64,000 nt of DNA from Candidatus Eiseniibacteriota bacterium (GTDB lineage: Bacteria; Eisenbacteria; RBG-16-71-46), in NCBI GenBank assembly GCA_963707915.1, contig OY970178.1:480001-544000 (forward strand), given 5' to 3'. This document shows, in pieces, positions 11,972-56,015 of this stretch (positions within the stretch are counted from its first letter, which is position 1; every line of letters starts with the position of its first letter). The notes below the pieces were generated by a model that was not told the origin of the DNA, searched no databases, and worked only from the letters and a program-made list of their open reading frames with translations. A program made the translations under genes and the position numbers.

Positions 11972-13275
11972 GCGGTTCGATGGGCCCCGGGCCCTCGCGG
12001 GATCCGTCGGCACGGGCGGTGGCCGGGCGCACGTCCTATCTGATCCTGCACAACACCTCGGAGGTGGTGACGCCCGACCCCGGGGGCCGCGCGGTGCTGC
12101 GCTACCCGCGCGGGGCGATCGTCTTCCGGGAAGGCCGCGTGCTGGAGGTCGGGCCGGGCCCGGAGTTGACCCGGCGTCACCCCGAGGCCCGCCCGCTCAA
12201 TGCCCATGGCAAGCTGGTCACCCCCGGGCTGGTGGACTGCCACACGCACATGATCTTCGCCGGGCACCGGGCCGCCGAGTTCCAGCGCCGGCTCCGCGGC
12301 GAGGCCTACGCCGCCATCGCCGCGGCGGGCGGCGGCATCCGCTCGACCGTCACCGCGACCGCCGCGGAGCGCGACGACGCGCTCGAGAAGTCGCTCGCCA
12401 ACCGGCTCGAGCGCTGGCGCGCCAATGGCTGCACGACGGTCGAGGTCAAGAGCGGCTACGGCCTCACGCCCTCGGGGGAGACCCGGCTGCTGGAGCTGAT
12501 GCGGGGCGCTGCCCAGCGCGTGCCGGCGTGGCTGCACCGCACGGCGCTGCTGCTGCACGCCCTGCCGCCCGAGTTCCGGGAGCGCCGCGCCGAGTATCTC
12601 GCCGCCATGGTCGATCGCGTGCTGCCGGACCTCGGCGTGCGCCAGCTGGCGAGCGCCGTGGACGTGTATTGCGACCCGGTGGCCTTCACGGTCGAGGAGT
12701 GCCGCGCGGTGCTGCTGCGCGCGAAGGAGCTGGGGCTGGACGTCAAGCTGCACGCCGACCAGCTCGAGCGCAGCGGCGGCGCGCGCCTCGCCGCGGAGCT
12801 GGGCGCGTGTTCGGCGGACCACCTCGAGTGCTCGACCGAGGAGGACTGGGGCGCGCTGGCGGAGGCCGGGGTGGTCGGCGTGCTCCTGCCGGGCGCGGCG
12901 CTGACCCTGCGGCAGTCGCTGCCCGAAGCCGGGATGCTGCGCCGCAGCGGCGCGCGCTGGGCGATCGCGTCCGACTTCAATCCCGGGACCTCGCCGGCGC
13001 AGTCCCTGCTCGAGTGCGCGGCGCTGGCCGCCCGGCTGTGCGGCTTCGATGCCGAGGAGACGCTGCTGAGCATCACTTGGAACGCGGCACGCGCGTTGCG
13101 GGTCGAGGCCGAGGTGGGGCACCTGAACCCCGGCGCCTGGGGCGACGCCGTGGTCTGGGAATGCGAGTCGCTCGAGGAGTTGCCCTACTGGCTTCCGGCC
13201 GTGCGGCCCGACATCGTCTTCATGCGGGGCGCCGACCTGGCGCTGCCGAGCGTCGAACGGCGGGTCTGGCCGTGA
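11968..13275 (+). CDS. hutI: Imidazolonepropionase
   Basis: GTG start overlaps the hutU stop. [45 protein letters not shown]. Confidence 0.93.
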
Positions 13276-13772
13276 TGGCGCCGCGCCGGGATGTCCGGCT
13301 GCTGCGTTGGGCAAGCCCGCGCGGCCTGCGACGTGTCCGGTTGACACGCCTCGGCCGCGCGGGCTTGCCCGCCTTGCATCCGGGCATCCGGGCGCGGCTC
13401 GGGGGTCTGGCACTGCTGGTGCTGGTCCTCGGTCCCCCAGCGCTGGCCGCCCCGGCCGACACGACCGGCATGATCGTGGGCTGGGCGCGCGACTCGGTGA
13501 GTGGCCGTGCGCTGCCGTATGCCAGCGTGGTGGTGCAGGGCACGCACCTCGGCGCCACCGCGGACACGAGCGGCTGGTTCCGGCTGGCCGGGGTGCCGGC
13601 CGGCGAGCGCGTGGTGCAGGCCCTGGCGCTCGGCTTCCGGCGTGGCGAGGCGCGCGTGAGGGTGCGCGCCGGGTGCGCCGACACCGTGCGGCTTCGTCTT
13701 CACGCAGTGCCCATCCACACGCAGCGGCCGGACCCGATCCGGAATCTTCTTCGAACCCCCGGGAACCACTGA
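13275..13772 (+). CDS. Small exported protein with a stand-alone carboxypeptidase-regulatory-like domain
   Basis: ATG overlaps the hutI stop. Hydrophobic signal, then G.I.G...D..SG..LPYASVVVQGT..GA.AD..G.F.L..VP.G pattern. Confidence 0.65.
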   Translation: MAPRRDVRLLRWASPRGLRRVRLTRLGRAGLPALHPGIRARLGGLALLVLVLGPPALAAPADTTGMIVGWARDSVSGRALPYASVVVQGTHLGATADTSGWFRLAGVPAGERVVQALALGFRRGEARVRVRAGCADTVRLRLHAVPIHTQRPDPIRNLLRTPGNH

Positions 13773-13789
13773 CGGAGAACCCAACGTCC

Positions 13790-15322
13790 ATGTCCAAGCT
13801 CGTCGAATGCGTCCCGAACTTCTCGGAAGGCCGCCGCCGCGAGGTGGTGGAGGAGATCATGCAGGCCATCGCTTCCGTCCCCGGCGTCACGCTGCTCGAC
13901 AGCGAGATGGACGCGGACCACAACCGCTCGGTGCTCACCTTCGCGGGCGAGCCGGAGCCGGTGATGGAGGCGGCGTTCCGCGCGGTGAAGCGCGGCAGCG
14001 AACGGATCGACCTGAACCAGCACCGTGGCGAGCACCCGCGCATGGGCGCGGCCGACGTGGTGCCGTTCGTGCCGGTCGAGGGGCTGACGCTCGAGGACTG
14101 CGCGGAGCTGGCGCGCCAGACCGGCCGGCGCATCGGCGAGGAGCTGGGGATCCCGGTGTTCCTCTACGAGGCGGCCGCCTCCCGCCCGGACCGGGTGATC
14201 CTCGCCGACGTGCGGCGCGGCGAGTTCGAGGGGCTGCGCGAGCTGATCGGGAAGGACCCGAAGAAGAAGCCCGACTTCGGTCCCGAGCGCATCCACGCGA
14301 CTGCGGGGGCGACCGCGGTGGGGGCCCGGCGCTTCCTCGTGGCCTTCAATGCGAACCTGAACACGCCGGACCTGCGGGTGGCGAAGGCCATCGCCGCCTC
14401 GATCCGCGAGCAGAGCGGCGGCCTCAAGAACGTGCGGGCGCTCGGCTTCTCGATCGAGGGCGGGCGGCGGGCCCAGGTGAGCATGAACCTGGTGAACACC
14501 GAGGCCACTCCCATCCACCGGGTGCTCGCCCTGGTGCGCGCCGAGGCGGCGCGGCACGGCGCGGCCGTCCAGGGCTGCGAAGTCGTGGGGCTGGTCCCCG
14601 AGTACGCGATGCTCGACGCCGCCGAGCACTACCTGCAGCTCGAGAACTTCCGCCGTGACCAGGTGCTGGAGTTGCGCCTCAAGACGCCGCCGCTCACCGA
14701 GGCGGTCTCGGTGGCGTCGTTCTTCGACTCGGTCGCCTCGCCGACCCCGACGCCCGGGGGCGGCACGGTCGCGGCCTTCGTCGGGGCGCTGGCCGCGACC
14801 CTGCCGACCATGGTGGCCGGCCTGACGCTGGGCAAGAAGAAGTACGCCGCGCACGAGGAGGCGATGAAGGAGGTGCGCCGCAACGCGGCGACGCTGCGCG
14901 GGCGGCTGCTGGGGCTGGCGCGCCGGGACAGCGAGGCCTTCGAGGCGGTGCTGCGGGCGCGGAAGCTGCCGCAGGCCAGCCCCGCCGAGGCCGAGGCGCG
15001 GGAGAAGGCCATGGCGGCCGCGGACTTGGCGGCGATGCGCGTGCCGCTCGAGACCGCGCAGGCGTGCCTCGAGGTGCTCGAGCTGGCCGCCGAGGTCGCG
15101 GAGAAGGGCAACATCAATGCCGCGAGCGACTCCGGGGTGGCCGGGCTGCTGGCGAACGCCGCGTCGGAAGGGGCGCTGCTGAACGTGGAAATCAACCTGA
15201 AGTCCGCCGGGCCATCCGCCGATAAGACCGACATCGAGATGAGCCTGCAACGCATCCGGACAGCGCTCGGCCCAATGGCGCGGCGCTGCCAGGATGCCGT
15301 GCATGCCGCCTTGAACGCTTGA
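13790..15322 (+). CDS. ftcd: Bifunctional glutamate formimidoyltransferase / formiminotetrahydrofolate cyclodeaminase
   Basis: LVECVPNFSEGR, DADHNRSV, HRGEHPRMGAADVVPF; C-terminal cyclodeaminase PTPGGG, GNINAASD, LNVEINL. GGAG RBS before ATG 13790. Confidence 0.93.
   Translation: MSKLVECVPNFSEGRRREVVEEIMQAIASVPGVTLLDSEMDADHNRSVLTFAGEPEPVMEAAFRAVKRGSERIDLNQHRGEHPRMGAADVVPFVPVEGLTLEDCAELARQTGRRIGEELGIPVFLYEAAASRPDRVILADVRRGEFEGLRELIGKDPKKKPDFGPERIHATAGATAVGARRFLVAFNANLNTPDLRVAKAIAASIREQSGGLKNVRALGFSIEGGRRAQVSMNLVNTEATPIHRVLALVRAEAARHGAAVQGCEVVGLVPEYAMLDAAEHYLQLENFRRDQVLELRLKTPPLTEAVSVASFFDSVASPTPTPGGGTVAAFVGALAATLPTMVAGLTLGKKKYAAHEEAMKEVRRNAATLRGRLLGLARRDSEAFEAVLRARKLPQASPAEAEAREKAMAAADLAAMRVPLETAQACLEVLELAAEVAEKGNINAASDSGVAGLLANAASEGALLNVEINLKSAGPSADKTDIEMSLQRIRTALGPMARRCQDAVHAALNA
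15198..15225 (+). promoter_or_regulatory. Sigma-28 (FliA/WhiG)-type promoter inside the ftcd 3' end, upstream of the TPR gene
   Basis: TGAAG-N15-GCCGATAA; same spacing as the sites at 21198 and 32735. Confidence 0.65.
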
Positions 15323-20687: not shown

Positions 20688-21146
20688 ATGCCTGCCTGGA
20701 CGCCGGCGGAGCGGCGCGGCGCGCTGGTGGTCGCGTTGCTCCTCTCGCTGGGCGCGGCGCGTGATCTGTGGCGCGCGGCGCACCCGCGCATGACCCCCGC
20801 GCCGCCGGCCACGACGGAGGTCTCGAGCGGCGCTTCGGCGCCCGCCGCCGGCCCGCCGGCGGGAAGCGCCGGCCCGGAACCGGCCGGGGCCGGGGCGGTG
20901 GTCGACCTCAACCAGGCCGGGCTCGCCGAGCTGGACGCCCTGCCCGGCATCGGTCCGGTGCTGGCCGGACGCATCCTGCAGCACCGCAGCGCCCACGGCC
21001 CGTTCCGGGAACCGGAGGACCTGCTCGCGGTGCCCGGCATCGGGCCGCGCCTCTACGAGCGCCTCCGGCCCCGGATCCGCGTCGGCCCCGCCCGGGCGCC
21101 TGCGGCCGGGAGTCGAGCGAAGCCGGGCGGCCCGTCCGGGCCCTGA
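20688..21146 (+). CDS. comEA: ComEA-family helix-hairpin-helix DNA-binding protein
   Basis: N-terminal TM segment; VDLNQAGLAELDALPGIGPVLAGRI...GPF...EDLLAVPGIGP. Confidence 0.9.
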   Translation: MPAWTPAERRGALVVALLLSLGAARDLWRAAHPRMTPAPPATTEVSSGASAPAAGPPAGSAGPEPAGAGAVVDLNQAGLAELDALPGIGPVLAGRILQHRSAHGPFREPEDLLAVPGIGPRLYERLRPRIRVGPARAPAAGSRAKPGGPSGP

Positions 21147-21197
21147 GGGCCTTGCAATCGGCATCCCCGGCGCGGCTTTCCGCCTGCGGATTCTGGT

Positions 21198-21225
21198 TCA
21201 GGAGTCCGGGGAGGCCGGCCGATAA
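21198..21225 (+). promoter_or_regulatory. Sigma-28-type promoter of the pilB operon
   Basis: TCAGG-N15-GCCGATAA in intergenic DNA. Confidence 0.7.
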
Positions 21226-21248
21226 CCCAGGTGAAACACGACGCCCAA

Positions 21249-21370
21249 GTGCATCGTGCGCGGCCGTTTGCTCCCTGGAGTCCGGCCGCGCGGATGCACG
21301 TGGCTTTCGTTCGCAGGCTCAGCGCCGCGCGACTCCAGTCTCCGCTGCCGCGGAGCGCGTGTCGCGTGGC
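21249..21370 (+). ncRNA. Candidate structured 5' leader (hairpin plus pseudoknot) of pilB
   Basis: Stem 21249-55/21293-99 and 21258-66/21283-91. Loop CTGGAGTC (21275-82) is complementary to GACTCCAG (21331-38). Folded by hand only. Confidence 0.45.
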
Positions 21371-21395
21371 AGGACCACCGCCGGGGACGAGATTC

Positions 21396-23090
21396 GTGCA
21401 GGAAGACATCGGACAGCTGCTCCTGGCAGCCCAATTGATCGACGAGGACGGGCTCGGCAAGGCCTCGCTCCAGCAGAAGAACATGGGCGGGAGCCTGACC
21501 GGGAACCTGGTCAAGATCGGTGCGATCAGCGAGGACGCGCTCCTGGAGTTCCTCGCGTCGCACTACGGGACGCCCCAGTTCGACCTGAAGAACTTCACGC
21601 CCGACCCGGCGCTCACGCGCCTGATCCCGGGCGACGTCGCCAGCCGCTTCATGGCCCTGCCGGTCGCCCGCAGCGGGCGGCGGCTGGTGGTCGCCATGGC
21701 GAACCCGACCAACATCTTCGCCATCGACGACATCAAGTTCATCACCGGCTACGAGGTCGAGCCGCGGGTCGCGACGGAGGCCGCGCTCAAGAAGGCCCTG
21801 GACCGCGCCTACGACTCGGCCAGCACGATGGCCGACGTGATGAAGGGCATCGAGGACGACCTCTCGGTCGTCGAGGACGACGACAGCGCCGAGGCCGAGG
21901 CGGGGCTCTCGGCGGCCGACGAGGCGCCGATCGTGAAGCTGGTGAACTCGCTCATCGCCGACGCGGTGCGCAAGGGCGCCTCCGACATCCACGTCGAGCC
22001 CTACGAGCGGAGCATGCGGGTGCGCTTCCGCATCGACGGCGTGATGCAGGAGATGATGGCGCCGCCGTTCAAGTTCAAGGCCGCCATCCTCTCGCGACTG
22101 AAGATCATGGCGGAGCTGGACATCGCCGAGCGGCGCGTGCCGCAGGACGGGCGCATCAAGATCAAGGTGATGAACCGCACCATCGACCTGCGCGTCTCGT
22201 CGCTGCCGACCATCTTCGGCGAGAAGATCGTGATGCGCATCCTCGACAAGGCGAACCTCAACATCGACCTGGAGAGGCTCGGCTTCGAGCCGGCCTCGAT
22301 GAAGGAGTTCATCTCGGCGATCGCCAACCCGTACGGCATGGTGCTGGTCACCGGGCCCACCGGCTCCGGCAAGACCACCACGCTCTACTCGGCGCTCTCG
22401 CGGGTGAACACCCCCGAGGTCAACGTGATGACCGCCGAGGACCCGGTCGAGTACAACCTCGACGGCATCAACCAGGTGCTGGTGCACGAGGACATCGGCC
22501 TCACCTTCGCCGCGGCGCTCAAGGCGTTCCTGCGGCAGGACCCCAACATCATCATGGTGGGCGAGATCCGCGACCTGGACACCGGCTCGATCGCGGTGAA
22601 GGCGGCGCTCACCGGCCACCTGGTGCTCTCCACGCTGCACACCAACGACGCGCCGAGCGCGATCGGCCGCATGATCGACATGGGGGTCGAGCCGTTCCTG
22701 GTGGCGTCGTCGGTGAACCTGATCCTGGCCCAGCGCCTCGTGCGCAAGGTGTGCAACGGCTGCAAGGCGCCGATCACGCTCAGCCAGGAGGTGCTGCACG
22801 AACTGCAGCTCACCCCCGAGCAGGCTGCCGGCGCGACGTTCGTCGAGGGACGCGGCTGCGTGGACTGCAACAACACCGGCTACCGCGGGCGGCAGGGCGT
22901 CTACGAGGTGATGTCGATGACGCCGGCGATCCGCGAGCTCGTGCTGGAGCGGGCATCGGCCAACGAGATCAAGCGCGTGGCCATCTCGCAGGGCATGCTG
23001 ACCCTGCGCCGCGACGCGCTGGAGAAGCTCAAGCGCGGCATGACCACGGTCGAGGAAGTGCTCAAGGAGACGGCGGCCGACCAGTTCTAG
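21396..23090 (+). CDS. pilB: Type IV pilus extension ATPase
   Basis: ASDIHVEP, LDIAERRVPQDGR, GPTGSGKTTT, AEDPVEY, LRQDPNIIMVGEIRD, Zn-binding CxxC pairs. GTG 21396 chosen as start. Confidence 0.95.
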   Translation: MQEDIGQLLLAAQLIDEDGLGKASLQQKNMGGSLTGNLVKIGAISEDALLEFLASHYGTPQFDLKNFTPDPALTRLIPGDVASRFMALPVARSGRRLVVAMANPTNIFAIDDIKFITGYEVEPRVATEAALKKALDRAYDSASTMADVMKGIEDDLSVVEDDDSAEAEAGLSAADEAPIVKLVNSLIADAVRKGASDIHVEPYERSMRVRFRIDGVMQEMMAPPFKFKAAILSRLKIMAELDIAERRVPQDGRIKIKVMNRTIDLRVSSLPTIFGEKIVMRILDKANLNIDLERLGFEPASMKEFISAIANPYGMVLVTGPTGSGKTTTLYSALSRVNTPEVNVMTAEDPVEYNLDGINQVLVHEDIGLTFAAALKAFLRQDPNIIMVGEIRDLDTGSIAVKAALTGHLVLSTLHTNDAPSAIGRMIDMGVEPFLVASSVNLILAQRLVRKVCNGCKAPITLSQEVLHELQLTPEQAAGATFVEGRGCVDCNNTGYRGRQGVYEVMSMTPAIRELVLERASANEIKRVAISQGMLTLRRDALEKLKRGMTTVEEVLKETAADQF

Positions 23091-23160: not shown

Positions 23161-24264
23161 GTGGTGACCCTTCGCCAGCTGCTCGAGGACATGGTGTCGA
23201 GGCGGGCCTCGGACCTGCACATCACGGCCGGAGTGCCGCCGGAGTTCCGCGTGGACGGGATCATCGCGCCGAGCGAGTACGAGGTGCTCAGCCCCGACGA
23301 CACCGGCAAGCTCGCGTACAGCGTGATGTCGGACGAACAGCGCAAGCGCTTCGAGACCACCAAGGAGCTGGACTTCTCGTTCGGCATCAAGGGCCTGGCG
23401 CGCTACCGCGCGAACGTCTTCCTGCAGCGTGGCACGGTCTGCATGGTGATCCGCCAGATCCCCTTCGAGATCCTGCAGATGGACAAGCTGGGGCTGCCGA
23501 ACGTGGCCCGGGAGTTCACCAACCGGATGAAGGGGATGATCCTGGTGACCGGGCCGACCGGCAGCGGCAAGTCGACGACGCTGGCGGCGATGCTGGACAA
23601 GATCAACCAGACGCGCCAGTGCCACATCATCACCATCGAGGACCCGGTCGAGTACATCCATCACCACAAGAAGTGCATCGTGAACCAGCGGGAGGTCGGC
23701 TCGGACACGACGTCCTTCCCGACCGCGCTCAAGTACGTCCTGCGCCAGGACCCGGACATCATCCTGATCGGCGAGATGCGCGACCTCGAGACCATCGAGG
23801 CGGCGCTCACCATCGCCGAGACCGGGCACCTGGTGTTCGCCACCCTGCACACCAACTCGACCTACGAGGCGGTCAACCGCATCGTGGACGTGTTCCCCGC
23901 CGACCAGCAGAAGCAGATCCTCACCCAGCTCGCCTTCACGCTCGAAGGCGTGATCACCCAGCAGCTCATCCCGCGCAGCCACGGCTCGGGGCGCATCCTG
24001 TGCGCCGAGGTGCTGGTGTGCACGCCGGCCATCAAGGCGGTGATCCGCGAGGGCAAGACGCACCAGATCTACAGCCTGATGCAGGCCGGGCAGAAGTTCG
24101 GCATGCAGACCATGAACCAGGCGCTCCTGCAGGCGGTGCTCGACAAGCACCTGAGTCCCGAGGACGCGTTCGAACACTGCAGCGACCGGACCGAGCTCGA
24201 GGGGATGCTCGGGAAGGTCTGGGCCGGTTCGGCGGGCGGTTCGACCCACCGGAAAGTCGCGTAG
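23161..24264 (+). CDS. pilT: Type IV pilus retraction ATPase
   Basis: ASDLHIT, GPTGSGKSTTLAAM, TIEDPVEY, NQREVG, AETGHLVFATLHTN, AIKAVIRE, GMQTM. Confidence 0.95.
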   Translation: MVTLRQLLEDMVSRRASDLHITAGVPPEFRVDGIIAPSEYEVLSPDDTGKLAYSVMSDEQRKRFETTKELDFSFGIKGLARYRANVFLQRGTVCMVIRQIPFEILQMDKLGLPNVAREFTNRMKGMILVTGPTGSGKSTTLAAMLDKINQTRQCHIITIEDPVEYIHHHKKCIVNQREVGSDTTSFPTALKYVLRQDPDIILIGEMRDLETIEAALTIAETGHLVFATLHTNSTYEAVNRIVDVFPADQQKQILTQLAFTLEGVITQQLIPRSHGSGRILCAEVLVCTPAIKAVIREGKTHQIYSLMQAGQKFGMQTMNQALLQAVLDKHLSPEDAFEHCSDRTELEGMLGKVWAGSAGGSTHRKVA

Positions 24265-24273
24265 GAGGATCCC

Positions 24274-25491
24274 ATGCCTGTCTTCGTTTGGAAGGGACGC
24301 ACGCTCGCCGGTGAGGCGCAGAGCGGGGAGATCGAGGTCGGGCGCCAGGACGAGGCCGTCGACCTGCTGCGCAAGAGGAAGATCCTGGTCACCTCGATGC
24401 GGCCCAAGTCCGGCGGCTTCAAGATGCCGAAGCTGGGCGGCAGCGGCGTGACGACCAAGGACCTCGCCATCTTCACCCGTCAGTTCGCGACCATGATCTC
24501 GGCCGGCCTGCCGCTGGTCCAGTGCCTCGACATCCTCGCCAAGCAGTCGTCGAAGCCCTCGTTCGGCCGGGTGATCGGCGAGGTCACGCGCGAGGTCGAG
24601 GCCGGCGCGACGCTCGCGGACGCGCTGGGCAAGCACAAGGACGTCTTCGACGACCTGTTCCGCAACATGGTGGCCGCGGGCGAGGCCGGCGGCGTGCTGG
24701 ACGAGATCCTCATGCGGCTCGCCACCTACATCGAGAAGGCGGACGCCCTGAAGCGCAAGGTCCAGGGCGCGATGGTCTACCCGGCGGTGGTGCTCTCGGT
24801 CTGCGTCGGCGCCGCGGCCTTCATGCTGATCTTCATCATCCCGACGTTCGCGAAGATGTTCACGGACTTCGGCGGGGAGCTGCCGCTGCCCACCAAGATC
24901 GTCCTGATGCTGTCGAACGGGCTGCAGCGGTACTGGTGGGTGATGGTGCTGGGGATCGTCGGCGGGGTGATCGCGTTCAAGCGCTACCACGCCACCGAGT
25001 CCGGCCACCGGAACATCGACGCGACCATGCTGAAGGTGCCGGTGCTGGGCGACGTGCTGCTGAAGGGCGCGGTGGCCCGCTTCACGCGCACGCTCGGCAC
25101 GCTGATCGCGTCGGGCGTGCCCATCCTGGCGGGCCTCGAGATCACGGCCCGCACCTCGGGCAACCGGATCATCTCCGAGGCCATCATGACGGCCCGCTCG
25201 TCGATCAGCGAGGGCGAGACGGTGTCGGCCCCGCTCAAGGCGTCGGGCGTGTTCCCGCCGATGGTGGTGCAGATGATCTCGGTGGGCGAGCAGACCGGCG
25301 CGCTCGACGAGATGCTCACCAAGATCGCGGTGTTCTACGAGTCGGAGGTGGACACCGCGGTGGACAGCATGACCTCGATCATCGAGCCGCTGATGATCGT
25401 GATGATGGGCGGCATGGTCGGCGGCATGGTGGTCGCGATGTACCTGCCGATGTTCAAGCTGATCAGCGTGGTCGCCGGCGGGTCGAACTGA
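24274..25491 (+). CDS. pilC: Type IV pilus inner-membrane platform protein
   Basis: FTRQFATMISAGLPL, GEAGGVLD, AMVYP, LPLPT, GEQTGALDEML, AMYLPMF. Confidence 0.95.
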   Translation: MPVFVWKGRTLAGEAQSGEIEVGRQDEAVDLLRKRKILVTSMRPKSGGFKMPKLGGSGVTTKDLAIFTRQFATMISAGLPLVQCLDILAKQSSKPSFGRVIGEVTREVEAGATLADALGKHKDVFDDLFRNMVAAGEAGGVLDEILMRLATYIEKADALKRKVQGAMVYPAVVLSVCVGAAAFMLIFIIPTFAKMFTDFGGELPLPTKIVLMLSNGLQRYWWVMVLGIVGGVIAFKRYHATESGHRNIDATMLKVPVLGDVLLKGAVARFTRTLGTLIASGVPILAGLEITARTSGNRIISEAIMTARSSISEGETVSAPLKASGVFPPMVVQMISVGEQTGALDEMLTKIAVFYESEVDTAVDSMTSIIEPLMIVMMGGMVGGMVVAMYLPMFKLISVVAGGSN

Positions 25492-25493
25492 CG

Positions 25494-27197
25494 ATGACGA
25501 CGCTCGCGCACGAGCCGGCCGGTCCGGGCAGCCCGCCCGCCCTGCCGCATCCCGCGCCCGGCCCCGGTGGCCGGGAGCGGGCGCCCGTGCGTGGGCTGAT
25601 GACGCTGGTGTGGGGCCGGCTGGTGGTCGCGGCGCTGGCGTTGCCGTTGGGCCTGCTGATGCGCCCCGACGCCGACGGGGGGGCGCGCGCCCTGTTCGCC
25701 GCGTCGGCCGCGTGGGTCGTGGCGCTCTCGGCGGTGTTCGCGCTCGCGCTTCGCACCCGGCGCTCGCTCGCGCTCCAGGGCCACGCGCAGCTGGTCGCGG
25801 ACCTCCTCCTGGTGACGGCGCTGGCGGCGCACACCGGCGGGCGGGGCAGCCCGTTCGTGCTGTTCTACGTGCTGGTGGTCATCTCGGGCGGGCTGCTGGC
25901 CCGGCTCGGCGGCGGGCTGTTCGCCGCCGCGGGCGCGGGCGGCGCCTACCTGCTCCTCCCGGCGCTCGCGGCGCGCGTCGACCCCTCCGGGGCCGCGGCC
26001 CCGGAGACCGCGCTCCCGGCCGGGATGCTGCTGGCCTTCGTCGCCATCGTGGGGGTGCTGGCCGGTGTGCTGGGGCGCCGGGTGCGCGCCACGCGCGACG
26101 ACCTGGAGCGCACCACGCGCGAGCTCGACCGGGTGCGCGTGGATAACGACGTCATCCTGCGGCACCTGGCGACCGGCGTCCTCACGGTGGATGCCTGGGG
26201 GACGGTGGCCTACCTGAACCCGGCCGCCGAGCAGGTGCTGGGACTGCGGACGCCGGAGCTGCGCGGGCGCGCGCTGCGGGAGGCGCTGCCCGATCGCATC
26301 GGGCTGCTGCGCGACCTGGTGCAGGACACGCTGGCCCGCGGCGAGCCCCGGATGCGTGCCGAGATGACCGCGCGCTCGGCCGCCGGTCACGAGCTGGTGC
26401 TGGGGGTGACCACCAACCTGTTGCGCCACGAAGGCGCGGTGACCGGGGTCGTGGCGGTCTTCCAGGACCTGACCGCGGTGCGCGCCATGGAGCAGCGCGC
26501 GCGCCGCAACCAGACGCTGGCCGAGGTGGGCGCGCTGGCCGCGGGGATCGCGCACGAGTTGCGCAACGGGCTCAACCCGATCAGCGGCTCGGTGGAGTTC
26601 CTGCAGCGCGAGCTCAAGCCCGAGGGGGAGAGTGCCGTGCTCATGAACCTCATCACGCGGGAGTGCGGGCGGCTCAACCGGTTCGTGTGCGACCTGTTGA
26701 GCTACGCGCGCGAGCGCGACCTGGTGCTGGAGCCGTTCGACCTCGACGACCACATGGACGAGCTGCGCGACGGGCTGCGGAGCGATCCGCGTTGCGGCGC
26801 CGGGGTCCGGGTCGCCTTCGAGCCGCCGGGCACCGGCGTGCGCCTGCGGGGCGACCGCGGGCAGTTGCGGCAGGTCTGGCTGAACCTGGTCAACAACGCG
26901 CTGGACGCGATGGCCGGCGTCGGCACGCTGACGGTGCGCTGGCGTCCGGCGGATGGCGGGCGGGTGGTCGTGGAGTTCCAGGACCAGGGGGCCGGCATCG
27001 CCCCCGAGGTCCTGCCGCGCGTCGGAGAGCCCTTCTTCACCACCAAGCAGGAAGGCACCGGGCTGGGCGTGGCGATGGCCCAGCGGATCCTGGAGCGGCA
27101 CGGCGGCTCGCTGGTCTTCGAGAGCGCGCCGGGCCGCGGCACGATCGTCCGGGTGAGCCTGCCTGCCGAAGTCGAAATCCTGGCGAAAGCCGCTTGA
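25494..27197 (+). CDS. pilS: Membrane PAS sensor histidine kinase, PilS-like
   Basis: Multiple TM segments, PAS domain, H-box AHELRNGL, N-box NLVNNA, DQGAGI, FFTTK, GTGLG; position before pilR. Confidence 0.85.
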   Translation: MTTLAHEPAGPGSPPALPHPAPGPGGRERAPVRGLMTLVWGRLVVAALALPLGLLMRPDADGGARALFAASAAWVVALSAVFALALRTRRSLALQGHAQLVADLLLVTALAAHTGGRGSPFVLFYVLVVISGGLLARLGGGLFAAAGAGGAYLLLPALAARVDPSGAAAPETALPAGMLLAFVAIVGVLAGVLGRRVRATRDDLERTTRELDRVRVDNDVILRHLATGVLTVDAWGTVAYLNPAAEQVLGLRTPELRGRALREALPDRIGLLRDLVQDTLARGEPRMRAEMTARSAAGHELVLGVTTNLLRHEGAVTGVVAVFQDLTAVRAMEQRARRNQTLAEVGALAAGIAHELRNGLNPISGSVEFLQRELKPEGESAVLMNLITRECGRLNRFVCDLLSYARERDLVLEPFDLDDHMDELRDGLRSDPRCGAGVRVAFEPPGTGVRLRGDRGQLRQVWLNLVNNALDAMAGVGTLTVRWRPADGGRVVVEFQDQGAGIAPEVLPRVGEPFFTTKQEGTGLGVAMAQRILERHGGSLVFESAPGRGTIVRVSLPAEVEILAKAA

Positions 27198-27231
27198 GAG
27201 CCACGAACGCCCTTCTGGAGAGGTGATCCAC

Positions 27232-28644
<1,413 letters not shown>

Positions 28645-29340: not shown

Positions 29341-29644
29341 CAGCCGACGGTAGACGGGGCGGGAGGCGCGCGACGCCTCCCGCCCATTCGATGACGCGAG
29401 AGCCGGGAGACGGACTTCGAAACGGCGGCCGTGGAGCGCCGCCAGGAAGGTGAGTCGGGCCATGCGAGAATCGCCCAGAGGGTTCACCCTGATCGAGTTG
29501 ATGATCGTGGTCGTCATCATCGGAATCCTGGCGGCCATCGCGATCCCCAACTTCGTCGCGATGCAGGTCCGCGCCAAGGAAGGCAGCACCAAGGCCAACA
29601 TGCACACCTTCCAGCTGGCGGCCGAGGACTACGGCGTGCAGAAC
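29022..29644 (+). repeat. 69-nt direct repeat shared by the two pilins (29022-29090 and 29576-29644)
   Basis: AAGGAAGGCAGCACC...GTGCAGAAC, 68 of 69 nt identical by manual comparison. Confidence 0.85.
29357..29385 (+). terminator. Stem-loop after pilin 1
   Basis: GGGCGGGAGGCG-cgcga-CGCCTCCCGCCC, a 12-bp perfect stem with a weak U tail. Confidence 0.65.
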
Positions 29645-29893
29645 AACGGGCGGTACGCGGGGACCGCGGACGAGGTCGCACCCGGGTTGGCCGGCGGCGG
29701 CTCCACGCTCAAGAACCCGTTCGACGGCAGCACGACCACCGCCTACGCGGACCAGCCTGCGTGGGCACGGCCGCTGGCGACCGGCGTGACGACGCCCGGC
29801 ACCGCGGTGTACGGGGACTCCTCGAACGTGGTCTACCAGATCGCGGGCGAGGGCAAGGACGCCACCCTGAGGCTGGTGCTCACCAGCAACTGA
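29462..29893 (+). CDS. Second type IVa pilin, tandem paralog
   Basis: RG/FTLIELMIVVVIIGILAAIAIPNF; alternative start GTG 29450. Confidence 0.9.
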   Translation: MRESPRGFTLIELMIVVVIIGILAAIAIPNFVAMQVRAKEGSTKANMHTFQLAAEDYGVQNNGRYAGTADEVAPGLAGGGSTLKNPFDGSTTTAYADQPAWARPLATGVTTPGTAVYGDSSNVVYQIAGEGKDATLRLVLTSN

Positions 29894-30037
29894 CGGAGCC
29901 CGGGGCCGCTCTGCCCGGCCCGTCGCTACGCGCGGCAGACCCCCGAGGTTCTCCTGCCCAGGAGAGCTTCGTGGCGTCCGGATGAGCCCGGTCACCCGCC
30001 CCGCCTTCCCCTGGCGCCCCGCCTCCTCACCTCCGTG

Positions 30038-30053
30038 CGGCACGCCCGTTGCA
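30038..30053 (+). promoter_or_regulatory. Sigma-54 promoter of the ABC module
   Basis: CGGCACGCCCGTTGCA, matching GG-N10-GC with CACG and TTGC. Confidence 0.75.
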
Positions 30054-30155
30054 AGCACAGGCGCCCCGGTGGAGCCGCCATGCGACAGGGCCGGCCATGG
30101 CCCGATGGCGCAAGGGCTTGGCCCCATCGGAGGGGACCCGGAGGTGGACGAAACC

Positions 30156-31175
30156 ATGCAGAGTTCGATCGCCTCGATTGCGGACCGGCAAGCGACTGGC
30201 CGCCCTCTGGCCGCGGCGACTGCCCCGGATCCCGGCCTGGCCGTGTGCGTCCGGGGGCTTGCGAAGCACTACGTGCACCCGTGGACGCTCCGGGTGACGC
30301 GCGGTCTCGACGCGCTGGACCTCGACGTGCGCCGCGGCGAGGTGATGGGCCTGCTCGGTCCCAACGGGGCCGGGAAGACCACCACGCTCAAGCTCCTCAC
30401 CGGGCTGCTGAAGCCCACGCGCGGGCAGGCCTGGCTGATGGGCGAGCCGGTCGAGGACACCGCCTCGCGCCGCAGCCTCGGCTTCCTGCCCGAGCAGCCG
30501 TACTTCTACGACTACCTGAACGGCATCGAGTACCTCGAGCTGGCGGCACGGCTCTCCGGCATGACGGCGGCGGCGGCGCGCGACCGCGCGCGCCACTGGC
30601 TCGGACGGGTCGGGCTCGACGAGCGACCGCGCCTTGGCCTGCGCAAGTACTCGAAGGGCATGCTGCAGCGCCTCGGGCTGGCGGCCGCGCTGGTGCACGG
30701 GCCCGGGTTGCTCATCCTGGACGAGCCCATGAGCGGGCTCGACCCGTTCGGCCGCCGCGACGTGCGCGACCTCATCACCGAGCAGCGCGAGCGCGGCGTG
30801 ACCGTGCTGTTCTCTTCGCACATCCTGCCGGACGTCGAGATGCTGTGCGACCGGGTGGCCATCATGACCGGCGGCCGCCTGACGCGAGTGGCCACCGTCG
30901 GCGAACTGGTGGAGGACGGGCCGCAGGCGGTCGAGATCCGCTGTGCGGCGGGGGCGCTGCTCGAGGTGCCGTCCCGCTGGGCGGGCCAGGTCTCGCGCAC
31001 CCAGCGTGCCGACGAGTCCGTCTTCCGGGTCGAGGACGAGGCGCGGCTGGGGGACGTGCTGGGCTGGCTGCTCCAGTCCGGCGTCCCGATCCGCGCGGTG
31101 ACGCCGCAGCGACCGACCCTCGAATCGCTCTTCCTGGCCGCCGCCGAGACCGAGCACGAGCGGAGGAGCGCATGA
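30156..31175 (+). CDS. ABC ATP-binding protein (Myxococcus PilH-like)
   Basis: GPNGAGKTT, YSKGMLQR, LDEP, SSH; GGAGG RBS before ATG 30156. Confidence 0.9.
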   Translation: MQSSIASIADRQATGRPLAAATAPDPGLAVCVRGLAKHYVHPWTLRVTRGLDALDLDVRRGEVMGLLGPNGAGKTTTLKLLTGLLKPTRGQAWLMGEPVEDTASRRSLGFLPEQPYFYDYLNGIEYLELAARLSGMTAAAARDRARHWLGRVGLDERPRLGLRKYSKGMLQRLGLAAALVHGPGLLILDEPMSGLDPFGRRDVRDLITEQRERGVTVLFSSHILPDVEMLCDRVAIMTGGRLTRVATVGELVEDGPQAVEIRCAAGALLEVPSRWAGQVSRTQRADESVFRVEDEARLGDVLGWLLQSGVPIRAVTPQRPTLESLFLAAAETEHERRSA

Positions 31176-32734: not shown

Positions 32735-32762
32735 TCAAGTCCAATCCGCGTACCGCCGATAA
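32735..32762 (+). promoter_or_regulatory. Sigma-28-type promoter of pilMNOPQ
   Basis: TCAAG-N15-GCCGATAA in intergenic DNA. Confidence 0.75.
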
Positions 32763-32915
32763 GCACCATGACAGGTCACCCGACTGGGTCCCCGGATCCA
32801 GGGGTGGCCCGGAGTTCGGCCCGTTGTCGTTCGTTCCGCCGCGAGTGGCCAGAGAGCCCCGCGGTCCAGCCCGCCGTGCCGGGTCAGGCCCGCACCGCGT
32901 CCAGGGAGTGAAGAC

Positions 32916-33971
32916 ATGCTCTTCGGCAAGAAGCAGTCCCTCGTGGGGCTGGACATCGGCAGCCACACCATCAAGGCGGTCGAGCTGGAGTCGTTGCCCA
33001 ACAAGTCCTGGCGGCTCACCCGCTGGGGCGTCTCCGCTCCGCTCGCCGAGGCCATCGTCGACGGCGAGATCATGGACCGCCAGCTGGTGACCGACGCCAT
33101 CTCCAACCTGTTCGAGTCGCGCGGCATCAAGTCGCGCAGCGTCGTGGCGGCGGTGAGCGGCCGCGCGGTGATCGTGAAGAAGATCACGATGAACCGCCTC
33201 TCCGCGGCCGACGCGCAGCAGGCGGTCTACTGGGAGGCCGAGCAGCACGTCCCGTACGACATCAACGACGTGTCGCTCGACTTCGAGATCGTGGGCCCCG
33301 CGCCGAACGACCCGAAGCAGATGCAGGTGCTGCTGGTCGCGGCGAAGAAGGACATGGTCACCTCGTTCGGCGACCTGATCCGCGAGGCGGGGCTCTCGCC
33401 GGCCGTGGTGGACGTCGACTCGTTCGCGGCGCAGAACGCGCTCGAGGCCAACTACGACTTCGCGCCCGAGGAGGTCGTCGCGATCCTGAACATCGGGGCG
33501 GAGATGACCAACATCAACATCGTCCAGGCCGGCGTGCCGTACTTCACCAAGGACCTGCAGGTGGGCGGCACGACGTTCGTCGAGGCCGCGCAGCGCAAGT
33601 TCAACCTGAGCCAGGCCGAGGCCGCGGCCGCGGTGCGCGGCGAGTCGGGCTCGAGCCTCGAGCTCGCGCCGGTGATCGAGCAGGCCTGCGAGGGGCTGGC
33701 GACCGCGCTCGAGCGCGCGCAGGCGTTCCTGCGCACGTCGGGCGAGGCGGGCGCCATCTCCCGCATCATGCTGTGCGGCGGGAGCGCGCTCACGCCGGGC
33801 GTGCCGGAGTTCATGCAGCGCCGCTTCGGCGTCACGACCGAGATCGCCAACCCGCTGGCCCGTGTCAGCTATGACCCCGCGTTGTTCGCCGGGCAGGACG
33901 TCATGAAGGTGGCGCCGCTTCTGACGGTCGGGATCGGACTCGCGCTGCGCCGCGTGGGAGACAAGAAATGA
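32916..33971 (+). CDS. pilM: Type IV pilus assembly protein PilM
   Basis: VGLDIGSHTIK, EAEQHVPY, LLVAAKK, LNIGA, LCGGSA, GLALR. Confidence 0.95.
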   Translation: MLFGKKQSLVGLDIGSHTIKAVELESLPNKSWRLTRWGVSAPLAEAIVDGEIMDRQLVTDAISNLFESRGIKSRSVVAAVSGRAVIVKKITMNRLSAADAQQAVYWEAEQHVPYDINDVSLDFEIVGPAPNDPKQMQVLLVAAKKDMVTSFGDLIREAGLSPAVVDVDSFAAQNALEANYDFAPEEVVAILNIGAEMTNINIVQAGVPYFTKDLQVGGTTFVEAAQRKFNLSQAEAAAAVRGESGSSLELAPVIEQACEGLATALERAQAFLRTSGEAGAISRIMLCGGSALTPGVPEFMQRRFGVTTEIANPLARVSYDPALFAGQDVMKVAPLLTVGIGLALRRVGDKK

Positions 33972-34537
33972 TCCGGATCAATCTCCTCCCCGGGGAGGAC
34001 AAGCGGCAGCGCAAGTCCGCCGTCGCGCTGAAGGCCGGCGACATGCTCGTGCCGCTCGCGCTCGTCGTGGCGACGGTGCTGGTCGTGGCGGGGACGGCGC
34101 TCTCGCAGCGCACCCGCGCCGACGGCCTGGTGCGCTCCATCGCGGACGTGGACGCCCAGTCGCGCGTGCTGGCGCCCCAGATCGAGCGGGTCAACCGCCT
34201 GGCGCAGGAGCGCGCCGAGCTGGACCTGCGGCTCGGCATCATCGGCAAGCTGCAGAAGGGACGCACGCAGAGCGTGCGGCTCATGGACGAGCTGGCGCGC
34301 TGCATCCCCGAGCACCTGTGGGTCGGCGTCGTCAACCAGGAAGGCGCCTCCACGCTGAGCATCGAGGGCACCACGCTCTCGAACCTCGTGGTCTCGGACC
34401 TCATGTCGAGACTCGAGCGCTCACCGCTCTTCGCGAACGTGGAGCTCGACGTGGCCGAGCATGCCGCCATCGCCGATCGCGACGTCGTGCGCTTCCGGGT
34501 GACCTGCCAGGTCACTCCGGACGAACCGGCCCAGTAG
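33968..34537 (+). CDS. pilN: Type IV pilus assembly protein PilN
   Basis: MIRINLLP motif, TM segment, coiled coil. Confidence 0.92.
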   Translation: MIRINLLPGEDKRQRKSAVALKAGDMLVPLALVVATVLVVAGTALSQRTRADGLVRSIADVDAQSRVLAPQIERVNRLAQERAELDLRLGIIGKLQKGRTQSVRLMDELARCIPEHLWVGVVNQEGASTLSIEGTTLSNLVVSDLMSRLERSPLFANVELDVAEHAAIADRDVVRFRVTCQVTPDEPAQ

Positions 34538-34547
34538 GGAGAACGCC

Positions 34548-35192
34548 ATGCCCAACCTCGATCTCAAGAACCCGGTGGTGCAGAAGACGGTGCTCAGCGT
34601 GCTGCTGTCGGTCGGCCTGCTGGGGGTCTTCTTCTTCACGCACTTCCTGCCGTTCGGCTACCCGAACCAGCAGGACCGGCTCAATTCGCTCAAGAGCGAC
34701 TTCGAACGCAAGTCCACCGAGCTGGCCCGGGCCCGCACCACCGTGGCGGACCTGCCCCGCTTCGAGGCGGAGTACGAGCAGCTGCACGACCGCTGGGTGC
34801 TGGCGGCCGAGTTGCTGCCGACGGACCGCCAGCTCGGCTCGCTGCTCCGCAAGATCACGCTCGCGGGCCAGGAGACCGGCGTGCAGTTCGGGCGCTTCAA
34901 GCCCTCGGCCCCCAAGACCGAGACCTACTACACGGAGATGCCGGTGCAGATCGCGGTCAGCGGCGGTTACCACCAGGTGGGGTCCTTCCTCGCCGAGCTG
35001 GCGAACCTGCGCCGCATCGTGACGGTCACGGACCTGCGGCTCAAGACCAACCCGGGCCTCGCGGCCAACCCGCTCGCCACGACCGCCATCGAGGTCACCG
35101 CGTCGGCCTACAGCCTGAACACCACGCCGGCGGTGGCGCCGGCGAAGAGCGCCCGCAAGGGGGGAGGCCCGGATGCGCGCAAGTCTTCGTAA
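34548..35192 (+). CDS. pilO: Type IV pilus assembly protein PilO
   Basis: TM segment, coiled coil, LLP..LL..I, YTEMPV.I...GGYHQVGSFLAELANLRRIV. Confidence 0.92.
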   Translation: MPNLDLKNPVVQKTVLSVLLSVGLLGVFFFTHFLPFGYPNQQDRLNSLKSDFERKSTELARARTTVADLPRFEAEYEQLHDRWVLAAELLPTDRQLGSLLRKITLAGQETGVQFGRFKPSAPKTETYYTEMPVQIAVSGGYHQVGSFLAELANLRRIVTVTDLRLKTNPGLAANPLATTAIEVTASAYSLNTTPAVAPAKSARKGGGPDARKSS

Positions 35193-35928
35193 GCGGATCC
35201 CGCACGCCGGGGTCGCGCGCACCGCGGTGGTGCTGCTGGTCGCGTGCGCCGGCCTGACGGCGGAACCGGTCCTGGCGGGCTCCTCGGTCGAGGCGCGCGC
35301 CGTCCTCGCCGCACGCCAGGTCGCGGCGCGGGCCGAGACCCGCGTGCAGGCGCAGAACGTCATCGCGGGCACGAAGGTGCCCGCACGGAAGCCGGTCCCG
35401 GCGAAGGCCGTGGTTCCGGCGAAGGCCGTTCCGGCGGCGGTCGCGGTCCCGGCAAAGGTCGGGAGTCCCGCGGTCCGCCCGCCGGTGAGCGGCCGGCCCC
35501 GCGTGGCGGCGGTCGTCCGCCCGCAGGTCACGGCGGTCCCCGCGTCGACGCGGCCCGGCATGAGCACCGTGCCGGCGCCCGCGGTCGCGCGGCTCGACGA
35601 CCAGGTGACGTACCAGTACAACGCGCTGGGGCGGCGCGACCCGTTCATGCCGCTCGTGGGCGGCGCGGAATACGTCCCCATCGACGCCCCGCCCGACGTC
35701 GGCGCCCTGCAGGTCGTGGGCATCGTGTGGGGGAGCACGGACAAGTTCGCCATCGTCGAGGATGGCCGGGGGAACAGCTCGGTGCTGCGCCCCGGCGACA
35801 AGGTCATGAACGGAGTGGTGGAAGGTCTGAAGCGGGACGCCATCATCCTGAGCCTCACCACGGACGGTCAGACGCAGTCGGTGACCATTCCACTGACGCG
35901 GAAGGGAGATTCGAATGCGAACCGCTAA
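35173..35928 (+). CDS. pilP: PilP-like protein with a long Pro/Ala/Val/Lys linker
   Basis: Y...GRRDPF motif, LQVVGIVW...AIVEDG; possible lipobox LVAC; position between pilO and pilQ. Confidence 0.7.
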   Translation: MRASLRKRIPHAGVARTAVVLLVACAGLTAEPVLAGSSVEARAVLAARQVAARAETRVQAQNVIAGTKVPARKPVPAKAVVPAKAVPAAVAVPAKVGSPAVRPPVSGRPRVAAVVRPQVTAVPASTRPGMSTVPAPAVARLDDQVTYQYNALGRRDPFMPLVGGAEYVPIDAPPDVGALQVVGIVWGSTDKFAIVEDGRGNSSVLRPGDKVMNGVVEGLKRDAIILSLTTDGQTQSVTIPLTRKGDSNANR

Positions 35929-37267
35929 GCTCCTGGCGAGCCTGATGCTGGTCGCCGGCACCGTCCTCCTCACCCTGGCGCCCGTCCCGGCCGGCGCGCA
36001 GGACTCGGGATCCATGAAACAGGTGGGCCTCGTCCGCACCGGCTCGGGGACGTTCAGCATCGAGGTGGAGGGCGCGGACATCCGCACCGTGCTGCGCGCC
36101 ATCTCCGAGTTCAGCGGGCGCAACATCGTCATCAGCGGGGAGATCAGCGGCAAGGTGCGGGTCGCCCTCAAGAACGTCGCCTGGCAGGACGCGCTGCGGA
36201 CCGTGCTGCGCTCGAACGGCCTGGACTACGTCGAGGAGAACGGCATCCTGCGCGTGGACCAGATGACGAAGCTCCAGGCGGAGGCCGTCGAGCGCGAGAC
36301 CGCCAGGGCCAAGCAGCAGGAACTGGTGGCGCTCGAGACGCGCATCGTGAAGCTCAACTACGCCAACGCGGGCGAGCTCACCACCGCGCTGGTCGGCTCG
36401 CTGACCAAGCGCGGCAGCATCCTGGTCGAGAAGCGCACCAACTCGCTGATCGTCAGCGACCTGCCCGAGCGGGTGGGCCCGGTCGAGAAGATGGCGCGCG
36501 ACCTCGACACCGCCACGCCGCAGATCCAGATCACCGCGAAGCTGGTGGACGTCGACGTCGAGGCCCTGCGCGGGCTCGGGGTCGAGTGGAACATCGCGCC
36601 GGCGGAGCCGGAGTACTGGAACGGCACGAGCCTGCCCGGCGGCGGCGCGCTGCACAATCCCGACCGCAGCCTCAACCTGGCCGCCGAGCACAAGACCGGC
36701 ATCAGCGATCCCGCGAACCGGCTGACCTTCGGCATCTTCAAGAACTGGGGCTCCATCGAGGCCCAGCTGCAGACGCTGGAGCAGAACCGCAAGGCCAAGA
36801 TCATCTCGAATCCCCGGATCACGACGGTGGACAACCGGGAAGCCAAGATCCTGGTCGGCCAGAAGATCCCGCTCATCGTGCAGGACGTGGCGGGGAACCC
36901 GGTGTCGCAGCTGCAGACCATCGGTGTGCTGCTCCGGGTCACGCCGCACCTGACCGACGACAAGAAGATCGTCATGGACCTCCACCCCGAGGTCAGCGAC
37001 CTGTCCACGCAGAGCACCGTGCAGGGCGGCGTCATCATCAACACCAGCGAGGCCGACACGCGCGTGATGGTGGACGACGGCCAGACCGCCGTCATCGGCG
37101 GCCTGATCCGCACCAACGAGGGCACGGTGCGCCGAGGCGTGCCGTTCCTGAAGGACATCCCGCTGCTGGGGCTGCTGTTCAGCTCCACGAACACGGTGGA
37201 CTCGAGCCGCGAACTGCTCATCTTCGTCACCCCGCGGATCATCACCAGCATGGCCAGCAACGAGTAG
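35915..37267 (+). CDS. pilQ: Type IV pilus secretin (short, no evident AMIN domains)
   Basis: ADIRTVLR, VAWQDAL, EKRTNSLIV, PQIQITAKLV, GVPFLKDIPLLGLLF, ELLIFVTPRII. Confidence 0.93.
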   Translation: MRTAKLLASLMLVAGTVLLTLAPVPAGAQDSGSMKQVGLVRTGSGTFSIEVEGADIRTVLRAISEFSGRNIVISGEISGKVRVALKNVAWQDALRTVLRSNGLDYVEENGILRVDQMTKLQAEAVERETARAKQQELVALETRIVKLNYANAGELTTALVGSLTKRGSILVEKRTNSLIVSDLPERVGPVEKMARDLDTATPQIQITAKLVDVDVEALRGLGVEWNIAPAEPEYWNGTSLPGGGALHNPDRSLNLAAEHKTGISDPANRLTFGIFKNWGSIEAQLQTLEQNRKAKIISNPRITTVDNREAKILVGQKIPLIVQDVAGNPVSQLQTIGVLLRVTPHLTDDKKIVMDLHPEVSDLSTQSTVQGGVIINTSEADTRVMVDDGQTAVIGGLIRTNEGTVRRGVPFLKDIPLLGLLFSSTNTVDSSRELLIFVTPRIITSMASNE

Positions 37268-50563: not shown

Positions 50564-50639
50564 GCGACCCTAGCTCAGTTGGTAGAGCACGTGACTGAAA
50601 ATCACGGTGTCCCCAGTTCGATTCTGGGGGGTCGCACCA
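50564..50639 (+). tRNA. tRNA-Phe(GAA)
   Basis: 76-nt cloverleaf: GCGACCC/GGGTCGC acceptor, CGTGA-CTGAAAA-TCACG anticodon arm, TTCGA, encoded CCA. Confidence 0.97.
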
Positions 50640-50694: not shown

Positions 50695-50770
50695 GCCGGT
50701 GTAGCTCAGTTGGTAGAGCATGCGATTCGTAATCGCAAGGTCAACGGTTCGACCCCGTTCACCGGCTCCA
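50695..50770 (+). tRNA. tRNA-Thr(CGT)
   Basis: 76-nt cloverleaf: GCCGGTG/CACCGGC acceptor, TGCGA-TTCGTAA-TCGCA anticodon arm, encoded CCA. Confidence 0.97.
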
Positions 50771-55917: not shown

Positions 55918-56015
55918 GGGAACGAATGGGATCTGGTGGTCCCCGGGGACTTCAAATCCCGCGGTCGGGCGTTAAGAGCGTCCGAGGTGGGTTCGATTCC
56001 CACGCGTTCCCGCCA
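55918..56015 (+). tRNA. selC: tRNA-Sec(TCA)
   Basis: 98 nt; 6-bp D stem GGGATC/GGTCCC, anticodon loop CTTCAAA, 9-bp variable arm, T arm GTGGG-TTCGATT-CCCAC, G discriminator plus CCA. Confidence 0.93.

Follow-up and report, generated by a model that had tools for sequence, protein, structure and literature searches.

The stem-loops in the mRNA leaders of Escherichia coli ompA and of Bacillus subtilis aprE/ermC set the stability of the transcript or keep the ribosome-binding site (RBS) free. The hag leader of B. subtilis is subject to CsrA–FliW control and lies behind a sigma-D promoter, which belongs to the sigma-28 class. For type IV pili, a class II c-di-GMP riboswitch precedes pilA1 in Clostridioides difficile, and in Synechocystis the group-3 sigma factor SigF controls pilA1. 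A literature search returned nothing on pilus regulation in Eisenbacteria or on a pilB leader RNA.

Here, we describe the leader of a pilB-pilT-pilC operon from Candidatus Eiseniibacteriota. The window—meaning the whole 64,000-nt stretch of DNA that was analysed, G000:C1:480001-544000—is part of a genome consisting of a single 3.62-Mb contig with ~72% G+C. The element of interest sits inside the 249-nt gap between a comEA-like gene and pilB, and comparison with related leaders leads us to regard it as an apparently ordinary, genus-restricted structured 5′ UTR and not as a riboswitch-like switch. The features of the locus are as follows, in positions of the window; gene assignments rest on Pfam matches.

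13127-15322: formiminotransferase-cyclodeaminase
ending at 17296: TPR protein
20688-21146, + strand: ComEA-like (helix-hairpin-helix) gene upstream of the leader (HHH_3, E 1.9e-20), stop codon at 21144-21146
21171-21188, + strand: terminator-like hairpin with a T-rich tail, 3′ of comEA, the sole terminator-like site in 20900-21600
21198-21225, + strand: sigma-28 (FliA)-type promoter, TCAGG-N15-GCCGATAA
21233-21248, + strand: predicted single-stranded start of the leader, mean column identity 0.81 (16 genus sequences)
21249-21299, + strand: hairpin P1, 17 bp with one bulge and a 16-nt loop, reaching 21245-21303 with 3 additional bp; -40.6 kcal/mol, z -6.55
21275-21282, + strand: segment of the P1 loop proposed as 5′ strand of a pseudoknot, 8/8 pairs with 21331-38 in the window only, judged to be chance
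21301-21315, + strand: linker that includes a degenerate sigma-54-like element, with one base too few between GG and GC
21324-21370, + strand: hairpin P2, an outer 10-bp helix (21324-33/21361-70) around a 6-bp hairpin (21340-45/21350-55); -33.2 kcal/mol, z -2.67, part of the minimum-energy fold
21371-21395, + strand: tail with the Shine-Dalgarno (SD) sequence GGGGA (21383-21387), 8 nt before the start codon; mean column identity 0.88
21396-23090, + strand: pilB, type IV pilus assembly ATPase with a GTG start (T2SSE, E 2.2e-143; MshEN, E 5.7e-24)
23161-24264: pilT
24274-25491: pilC
27157-28644: sigma-54 activator (PilR-like)
29354-29893: pilin, followed by an ABC ATPase
32916-37267: pilMNOPQ

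The pilin gene and the ABC-transporter ATPase behind it together span 29354-31175, an order which we take to resemble pilA-pilGHI of Myxococcus.

The sigma-28-type promoter of pilB is well supported as a real and conserved element, judged by its sequence. The GCCGATAA -10 octamer is found three times in the window, always on the + strand (15218, 21218, and 32755) and against an expectation of 0.31, and the three sites share T(C/G)A(A/G)G-N15-GCCGATAA at 15198-15225, 21198-21225, and 32735-32762. These FliA-type promoters precede the TPR gene, pilB, and pilM, respectively. The preliminary description of this DNA had placed a sigma-28-type promoter ahead of the leader, and the octamer, its spacing, its conservation, and the presence of an encoded FliA all bear this out. 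Among relatives, 24 of 30 pilB loci have a sigma-28-type motif 124-199 nt before the gene (23/29 if L026 is left aside), while the corresponding promoter of pilM is kept in 19 of 23 loci from two families (18/22 if L073 is left aside)—L026 and L073 being the pilB and pilM loci of G026, an unpublished genome. Three loci of another family carry a sigma-54 motif at pilM instead. From the usual promoter geometry, we infer a transcription start about 7 nt past the -10 element.

The genome encodes two FliA-family sigma factors scoring above the curated cut-off, and also carries flagellin-like genes and FlhA. Genome-wide, there are about 20 sites with TCAAG-N15-GCCGATAA-type spacing; one of these lies immediately 3′ of the flagellin-like genes, and another is close to csrA and fliA. 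Taken together, the promoters suggest that the type IV pilus operons of Eisenbacteria belong to a sigma-28-class regulon and that flagellar-class sigma factors drive them, which is of more interest than the RNA itself. The situation resembles that of SigF in Synechocystis in that a promoter of the FliA/SigF class stands before type IV pilus genes. It differs in that pilB, pilM, and the TPR gene are the ones that carry the motif, and in that the promoter of pilB appears to have turned over from the sigma-54 to the sigma-28 type; hereby, the likeness is a matter of promoters and not of RNA.

Some details of these flagellar-type genes are worth recording. The flagellin-like genes are located at G000:C1:1710783-1712268. 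The csrA gene (G000:C1:1186222-1186380, - strand) lies ~6 kb from one fliA copy, and a sigma-28-type promoter is found at ~1188693 on the same strand as csrA. Next to the second fliA copy, the FlhA match falls into three pieces in different frames (G000:C1:1690443-1692397, - strand), which could mean a frameshifted gene or an assembly error. Around CCGATAA, a stretch of at least 51 nt recurs identically five times, e.g., at G000:C1:404050, 1799028, 2456635, 3194230, and 3298079, and another identical CCGATAA stretch occurs three times in the same genome (451832, 3450332, and 3452469); these repeated stretches are probably copies of mobile elements.

More distant relatives show a different promoter at pilB. 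In a set of 79 pilB loci from Eisenbacteria, Krumholzibacteriota, and Latescibacterota (relatives' loci L082-L161, 500 nt before pilB), a sigma-54-type motif (TGGCAY-N5-TTGC) is present in 52, at 84-158 nt before the start codon. Loose sigma-28-type matches are found in 32 of the 79, and 14 loci have both motif types. The sigma-28-type matches at -144 to -195 number 24-25 and come from the closest relatives only, eight of which also keep the sigma-54 motif (by reading). Among the 30 loci of the narrower comparison, 10 have a sigma-54-type promoter at the equivalent place. Other genera carry CGGCAY-N5-TTGCG at -83 to -135, a range that encloses the position of the window's own element at 95 nt before the start codon, and the sister genus has its sigma-54 motif in the apex of a hairpin that takes the place of P1. 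The element of the window (21301-21315) is one base short: it departs from the canonical GG/GC spacing (TGGCAC-N5-TTGC) and is detected only by a relaxed N4-6 pattern. Within the genus, 6 of 16 leaders have the GG at the corresponding alignment position and 10 lack it there (by reading).

The simplest history for this distribution, with an order of events that we infer, is as follows. In most relatives, pilB is driven from a sigma-54 promoter ~85-140 nt before the start codon. The family of the window would then have gained a sigma-28-type promoter further upstream, and in the genus of the window the old sigma-54 element would have decayed, its region turning into a transcribed, hairpin-forming leader. 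The leader thus probably arose by promoter turnover—a clear case, from an uncultured phylum, of a pilus gene changing from a sigma-54-type to a sigma-28-type promoter.

Downstream of the sigma-28-type promoter, the pilB-pilT-pilC mRNA would begin with an untranslated leader of ~165 bases (21233-21395). This leader has a G+C content of 70% and is predicted to fold into two self-contained, very stable hairpins; a short pyrimidine-rich linker lies between them, and an exposed RBS comes after the second. The stem of P1, proposed earlier as a 17-bp single-bulge stem (21249-66 with 21283-99), is present exactly as described and consists of 7 + 10 bp with a bulged G in between and one U-G pair. Likewise, the 6-bp hairpin CTCCGC/GCGGAG and the 10-bp helix around it, which includes one G-U pair, are found where they were placed. 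On the + strand, the 166-nt stretch 21235-21400 folds with -94.5 kcal/mol and a z-score of -4.14, and none of 200 shuffles does as well; the folding z-score proposed as a check thus comes out in favor of structure. The - strand of the same stretch reaches z -2.46. The signal for whole leaders is weaker elsewhere, with z-scores of -1.6, -1.6, -0.8, -2.9, 0.0, and -0.6 in six genus members and a mean of -1.1 over 24 loci.

DNA similarity of the leader is limited to the genus. Scanning metagenomes with the beginning of pilB contributed 13 further loci, of which 10 belong to this genus. The resulting comparison set comprises the window and 15 same-genus leaders (16 sequences), while 17 genus leaders entered a folding survey. 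In all 17, one long hairpin follows the conserved 5′ end despite differing sequences, with -19 to -41.5 kcal/mol in 16 of them (the segment of L003 was not folded, and that of the window was cut inside its stem). A second hairpin follows the linker, again in 17/17, with -29.7 to -41.2 kcal/mol in 16 (the segment of L005 was cut short). A MAFFT alignment of 13 close leaders has the nested pairs of P1 and P2 formed in 85% of cells with marginal covariation. The covariance model built from this alignment recovers the full leader in 16 loci (E 1.6e-43 to 2.6e-06); it finds no match in other genera and a single copy in the window's own genome.

In the 16-sequence alignment produced with the model, and hence fitted to the structure, 92.2% of cells are paired (shuffles, 87.3%), double changes affect 15 pairs (shuffles, 6.0±1.9), and the covariation score amounts to 0.195 (shuffles, 0.103); for each of the three measures, 0 of 500 shuffles reach as high. 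Slid partners, used as a control, pair in just 36-54% of cells. P1 pairs in 91-94% of cells, with double changes in 7 of its 15 pairs. Compensatory changes are spread over both hairpins, affecting 4/7 outer and 3/8 inner pairs of P1 as well as 4/9 outer and 2/5 inner pairs of P2, and four divergent sequences (L004, L005, L008, and L047) account for most of the double changes, which corresponds to few independent events. G-U pairs in the stems outnumber A-C pairs by 20 to 7, which fits an RNA of the + strand. Column identity amounts to 0.84-0.90 in the stems versus 0.60-0.77 in loops and internal loops, and to 0.81-0.88 in the single-stranded segments, i.e., the 5′ end, the linker, and the tail. 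With the caveats attached to the fitted alignment and the few independent events, P1 and P2 qualify as a conserved structured cis-RNA with compensatory changes, as far as alignments can tell and within one genus only.

Both DNA and protein similarity of pilB to its relatives start at the GTG codon 21396. A reading of the leader as coding sequence was rejected: an open frame does extend from 21231 into pilB, but similarity to the 30 relatives' loci begins at 21396. Within the genus, 171 to 186 nt separate the -10 element from the start codon, with differences that are not multiples of 3; relatives have CTG, TCG, or CAG in place of the upstream ATG/GTG; and third-position G+C in the leader frame is ~70% versus 94% in pilB (own count). 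For 80 further loci, PilB aligns from residue 1-5 in 79 and from residue 40 in one, whose locus begins inside the gene.

According to in silico folding, the SD is not sequestered. Its mean pairing probability is 0.62 in native leaders versus 0.69 in controls with shuffled upstream sequence, and in 10 of 17 leaders at least 80% of 20 shuffles had an SD more paired than the native one. Sequestration by the pyrimidine-rich linker, as drawn in a helix from RNAalifold, was rejected with double changes in 1 of 10 pairs and the SD less paired than in controls. The minimum-energy fold of the window also pairs the leader's 5′ end with the start codon; this long-range pairing is, by eye, not kept in relatives and was likewise discarded.

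The preliminary description had seen in these elements an H-type pseudoknot in competition with another helix, and hence a ligand- or protein-controlled switch common to three pilus operons. What it described in the window is there: the last 8 nt of the 16-nt P1 loop (21275-82) are the exact complement of 21331-38, a sterically possible pairing, and the alternative 10-bp helix of P2 does share 21331-33 with it. Drawn in this way, the sequence has a stem, a loop, and a downstream complement like the H-type pseudoknots of preQ1 and SAM-II riboswitches. In contrast to those classes, however, the element lacks a conserved second stem, has much longer stems, and gives no match in Rfam. All 8 pairs are available in the window and 7 of 8 in L044, there with a double change, but other relatives retain only 0-6, and this lack of conservation extends to relatives whose pilB start is 88-93% identical at the DNA level. 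The pseudoknot helix pairs in 71.8% of cells, and four of its eight pairs depart by unpaired cells only. An RNA-library contig of a relative also misses one base of the 3′ strand. For the loop/target duplex of the window (-13.8 kcal/mol, z -1.85), 6% of shuffled targets do equally well or better, and in an alignment-free comparison of the P1 loop with the downstream segment, 0 of 16 sequences beat shuffled targets at the 5% level. Covariation among pilB-leader homologs, suggested as a check, is obtained for P1 and the nested P2 but not for the pseudoknot helix. Hence, the eight pairs look like chance complementarity in one strain.

The supposed competitor is rather the conserved partner: the nested helix 21324-33/21361-70 is more stable than the pseudoknot and is the one taken by the minimum-energy fold. 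Only this one of the two mutually exclusive structures is conserved, the SD is not sequestered, and no terminator follows the hairpins, which together speak against a two-state switch. An aptamer would be expected to show its highest conservation in junctions and loops. The opposite is seen here, with the greatest variability in the loops and higher conservation in the stems. In agreement with the earlier statement that no known riboswitch is recognizable, Rfam 15 has no family matching the pilB leader. At the gathering score, the whole window returns only tRNA-Sec and two tRNAs, and 21100-21450 searched at E up to 10 gives three chance matches with 10-24 bits against cut-offs of 54-82. (The selenocysteine tRNA, 71 bits, lies at 55918-56011 and the two ordinary tRNAs at 50564-50636 and 50695-50767.) The leader shares with c-di-GMP riboswitches its place as a cis RNA in front of a type IV pilus operon, but neither an Rfam match nor conserved junction or loop nucleotides. 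With the pairing model of the pilB leader not recurring at pilM or the TPR gene either, a pseudoknot switch now appears very improbable, and the proposal is largely refuted by this comparison of sequences. Had it held, it would have meant a new riboswitch class controlling pili; a false lead is thereby removed.

Our favored reading, held tentatively at somewhat less than an even chance, is that 21233-21395 is a plain two-hairpin structured 5′ UTR of pilB that originated by promoter turnover, is kept by selection, and involves no ligand and no toggle. Transcribed from the FliA-type promoter at 21198-21225, P1 and P2 would lock a long leader of 70% G+C into local stems and so leave the RBS free; they would probably also affect the lifetime of the mRNA, while neither sensing a ligand nor switching between states. 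As in the ompA and aprE/ermC leaders, there are stable stem-loops in a long leader, compensatory changes in stems, variable loops, and, on this reading, no ligand. Classic stem-loops that protect the 5′ end sit nearer to it than P1, however, which begins 10-16 nt after the inferred start, and the element belongs to one genus of an uncultured phylum. It could instead be that the hairpins, or the single-stranded 5′ end, linker, or tail, bind a trans-acting protein or small RNA—CsrA, for example—that tunes translation or decay of pilB. This is unlikely, yet it is the alternative that we take most seriously. CsrA is encoded (91 bits) near a FliA gene, the single-stranded segments are well conserved, and GGA occurs in the tail of 11/16 leaders and at the SD of 15/16. 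The hag leader, itself a CsrA target dependent on sigma-D, offers a parallel with its sigma-28-class promoter, its structured leader before a motility gene, and csrA near fliA. On the other hand, GGA is found in the P1 loop of 8/16 leaders only and is missing from the tail in 5/16, its number is not obviously enriched (5 seen versus ~3 expected, own estimate), no FliW was found in the genome (94.8% complete), the pilM and TPR leaders lack the motif, and the target would be a pilus ATPase and not flagellin. A more far-reaching version, in which the two hairpins and the conserved single-stranded parts form a docking platform for an RNA-binding regulator—for instance CsrA acting in the absence of FliW, or a product of the flhG-fliA operon—seems distinctly improbable. 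If true, type IV pili of Eisenbacteria would be governed by a flagellar-style transcriptional and post-transcriptional hierarchy, made up of this platform and the FliA-type promoters of pilB, pilM, and the TPR gene.

Two further explanations are less probable still. The inverted repeats might be a relic at the DNA level, left from or serving the sigma-54 promoter region as a dyad or activator site, with pilB perhaps still transcribed from the weak site 21301-21315. The sigma-54-type promoters at the equivalent place in relatives (10/30 and 52/79 loci), the motif at the hairpin apex in the sister genus, and the PilR-like activator encoded at 27157-28644 are in line with this. A weak hint comes from two short RNA-library contigs of relatives that begin near 21330 and 21348—such contigs stem from relatives of ~90-92% identity and can show neither 5′ ends nor 3′ ends nor strand. 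But with the GG-to-GC spacing of the window one base short and the GG absent in most genus leaders, with both arms changing together where a protein-bound dyad would keep both half-sites, and with G-U exceeding A-C pairs, we hold little hope for it. Slightly less probable again is that P1 stops part of the sigma-28-type transcription and thereby acts as a regulated attenuator or releases a small RNA of ~70 nt whose 5′ seed is conserved. P1 is indeed very stable, the first 16 nt are conserved, and in close relatives a pyrimidine-rich stretch follows P1 after a 4-6-nt spacer. However, a terminator scan of 20900-21600 called neither P1 nor P2, and no T-run (U-run in the RNA) directly follows the stem; the T-rich patch is lost in divergent genus members; and pilB would go unexpressed if no working promoter lay downstream. 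In addition, one 3456-nt RNA-library contig of a relative spans comEA, the whole leader, and pilB, which may be DNA carry-over. Since comEA has its own terminator-like site at 21171-21188, P1 is not needed to end comEA transcription. For annotation, the comparison adds a long structured leader of pilB behind a FliA-type promoter in this lineage.

The same layout had been claimed to recur after the other two sigma-28-type promoters. This is correct insofar as three promoters exist and are followed by long leaders starting with a hairpin, but the covariance model of the pilB leader does not match there: with filters off, the pilM and TPR leaders score 4.8-6 bits (E 2-3.8). As whole leaders, they fold like shuffles (z -0.72 and -0.81), and their 5′ hairpins, chosen after the fact, have z -1.82 and -3.38. 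By sequence comparison, the pilM and TPR leaders are apparently not homologous to the pilB leader, the resemblance being only loose.

The pilM leader has a feature of its own. Its last ~75 nt (32839-32915) are ~92% identical in genus members, as compared with ~75% for the pilB leader there, and its GGTCCAGCC motif, hairpin, and extended SD (CAGGGAGTGAAG) recur in other genera. As a conserved leader element, the 3′ part of the pilM leader may be more promising than the leader of pilB.
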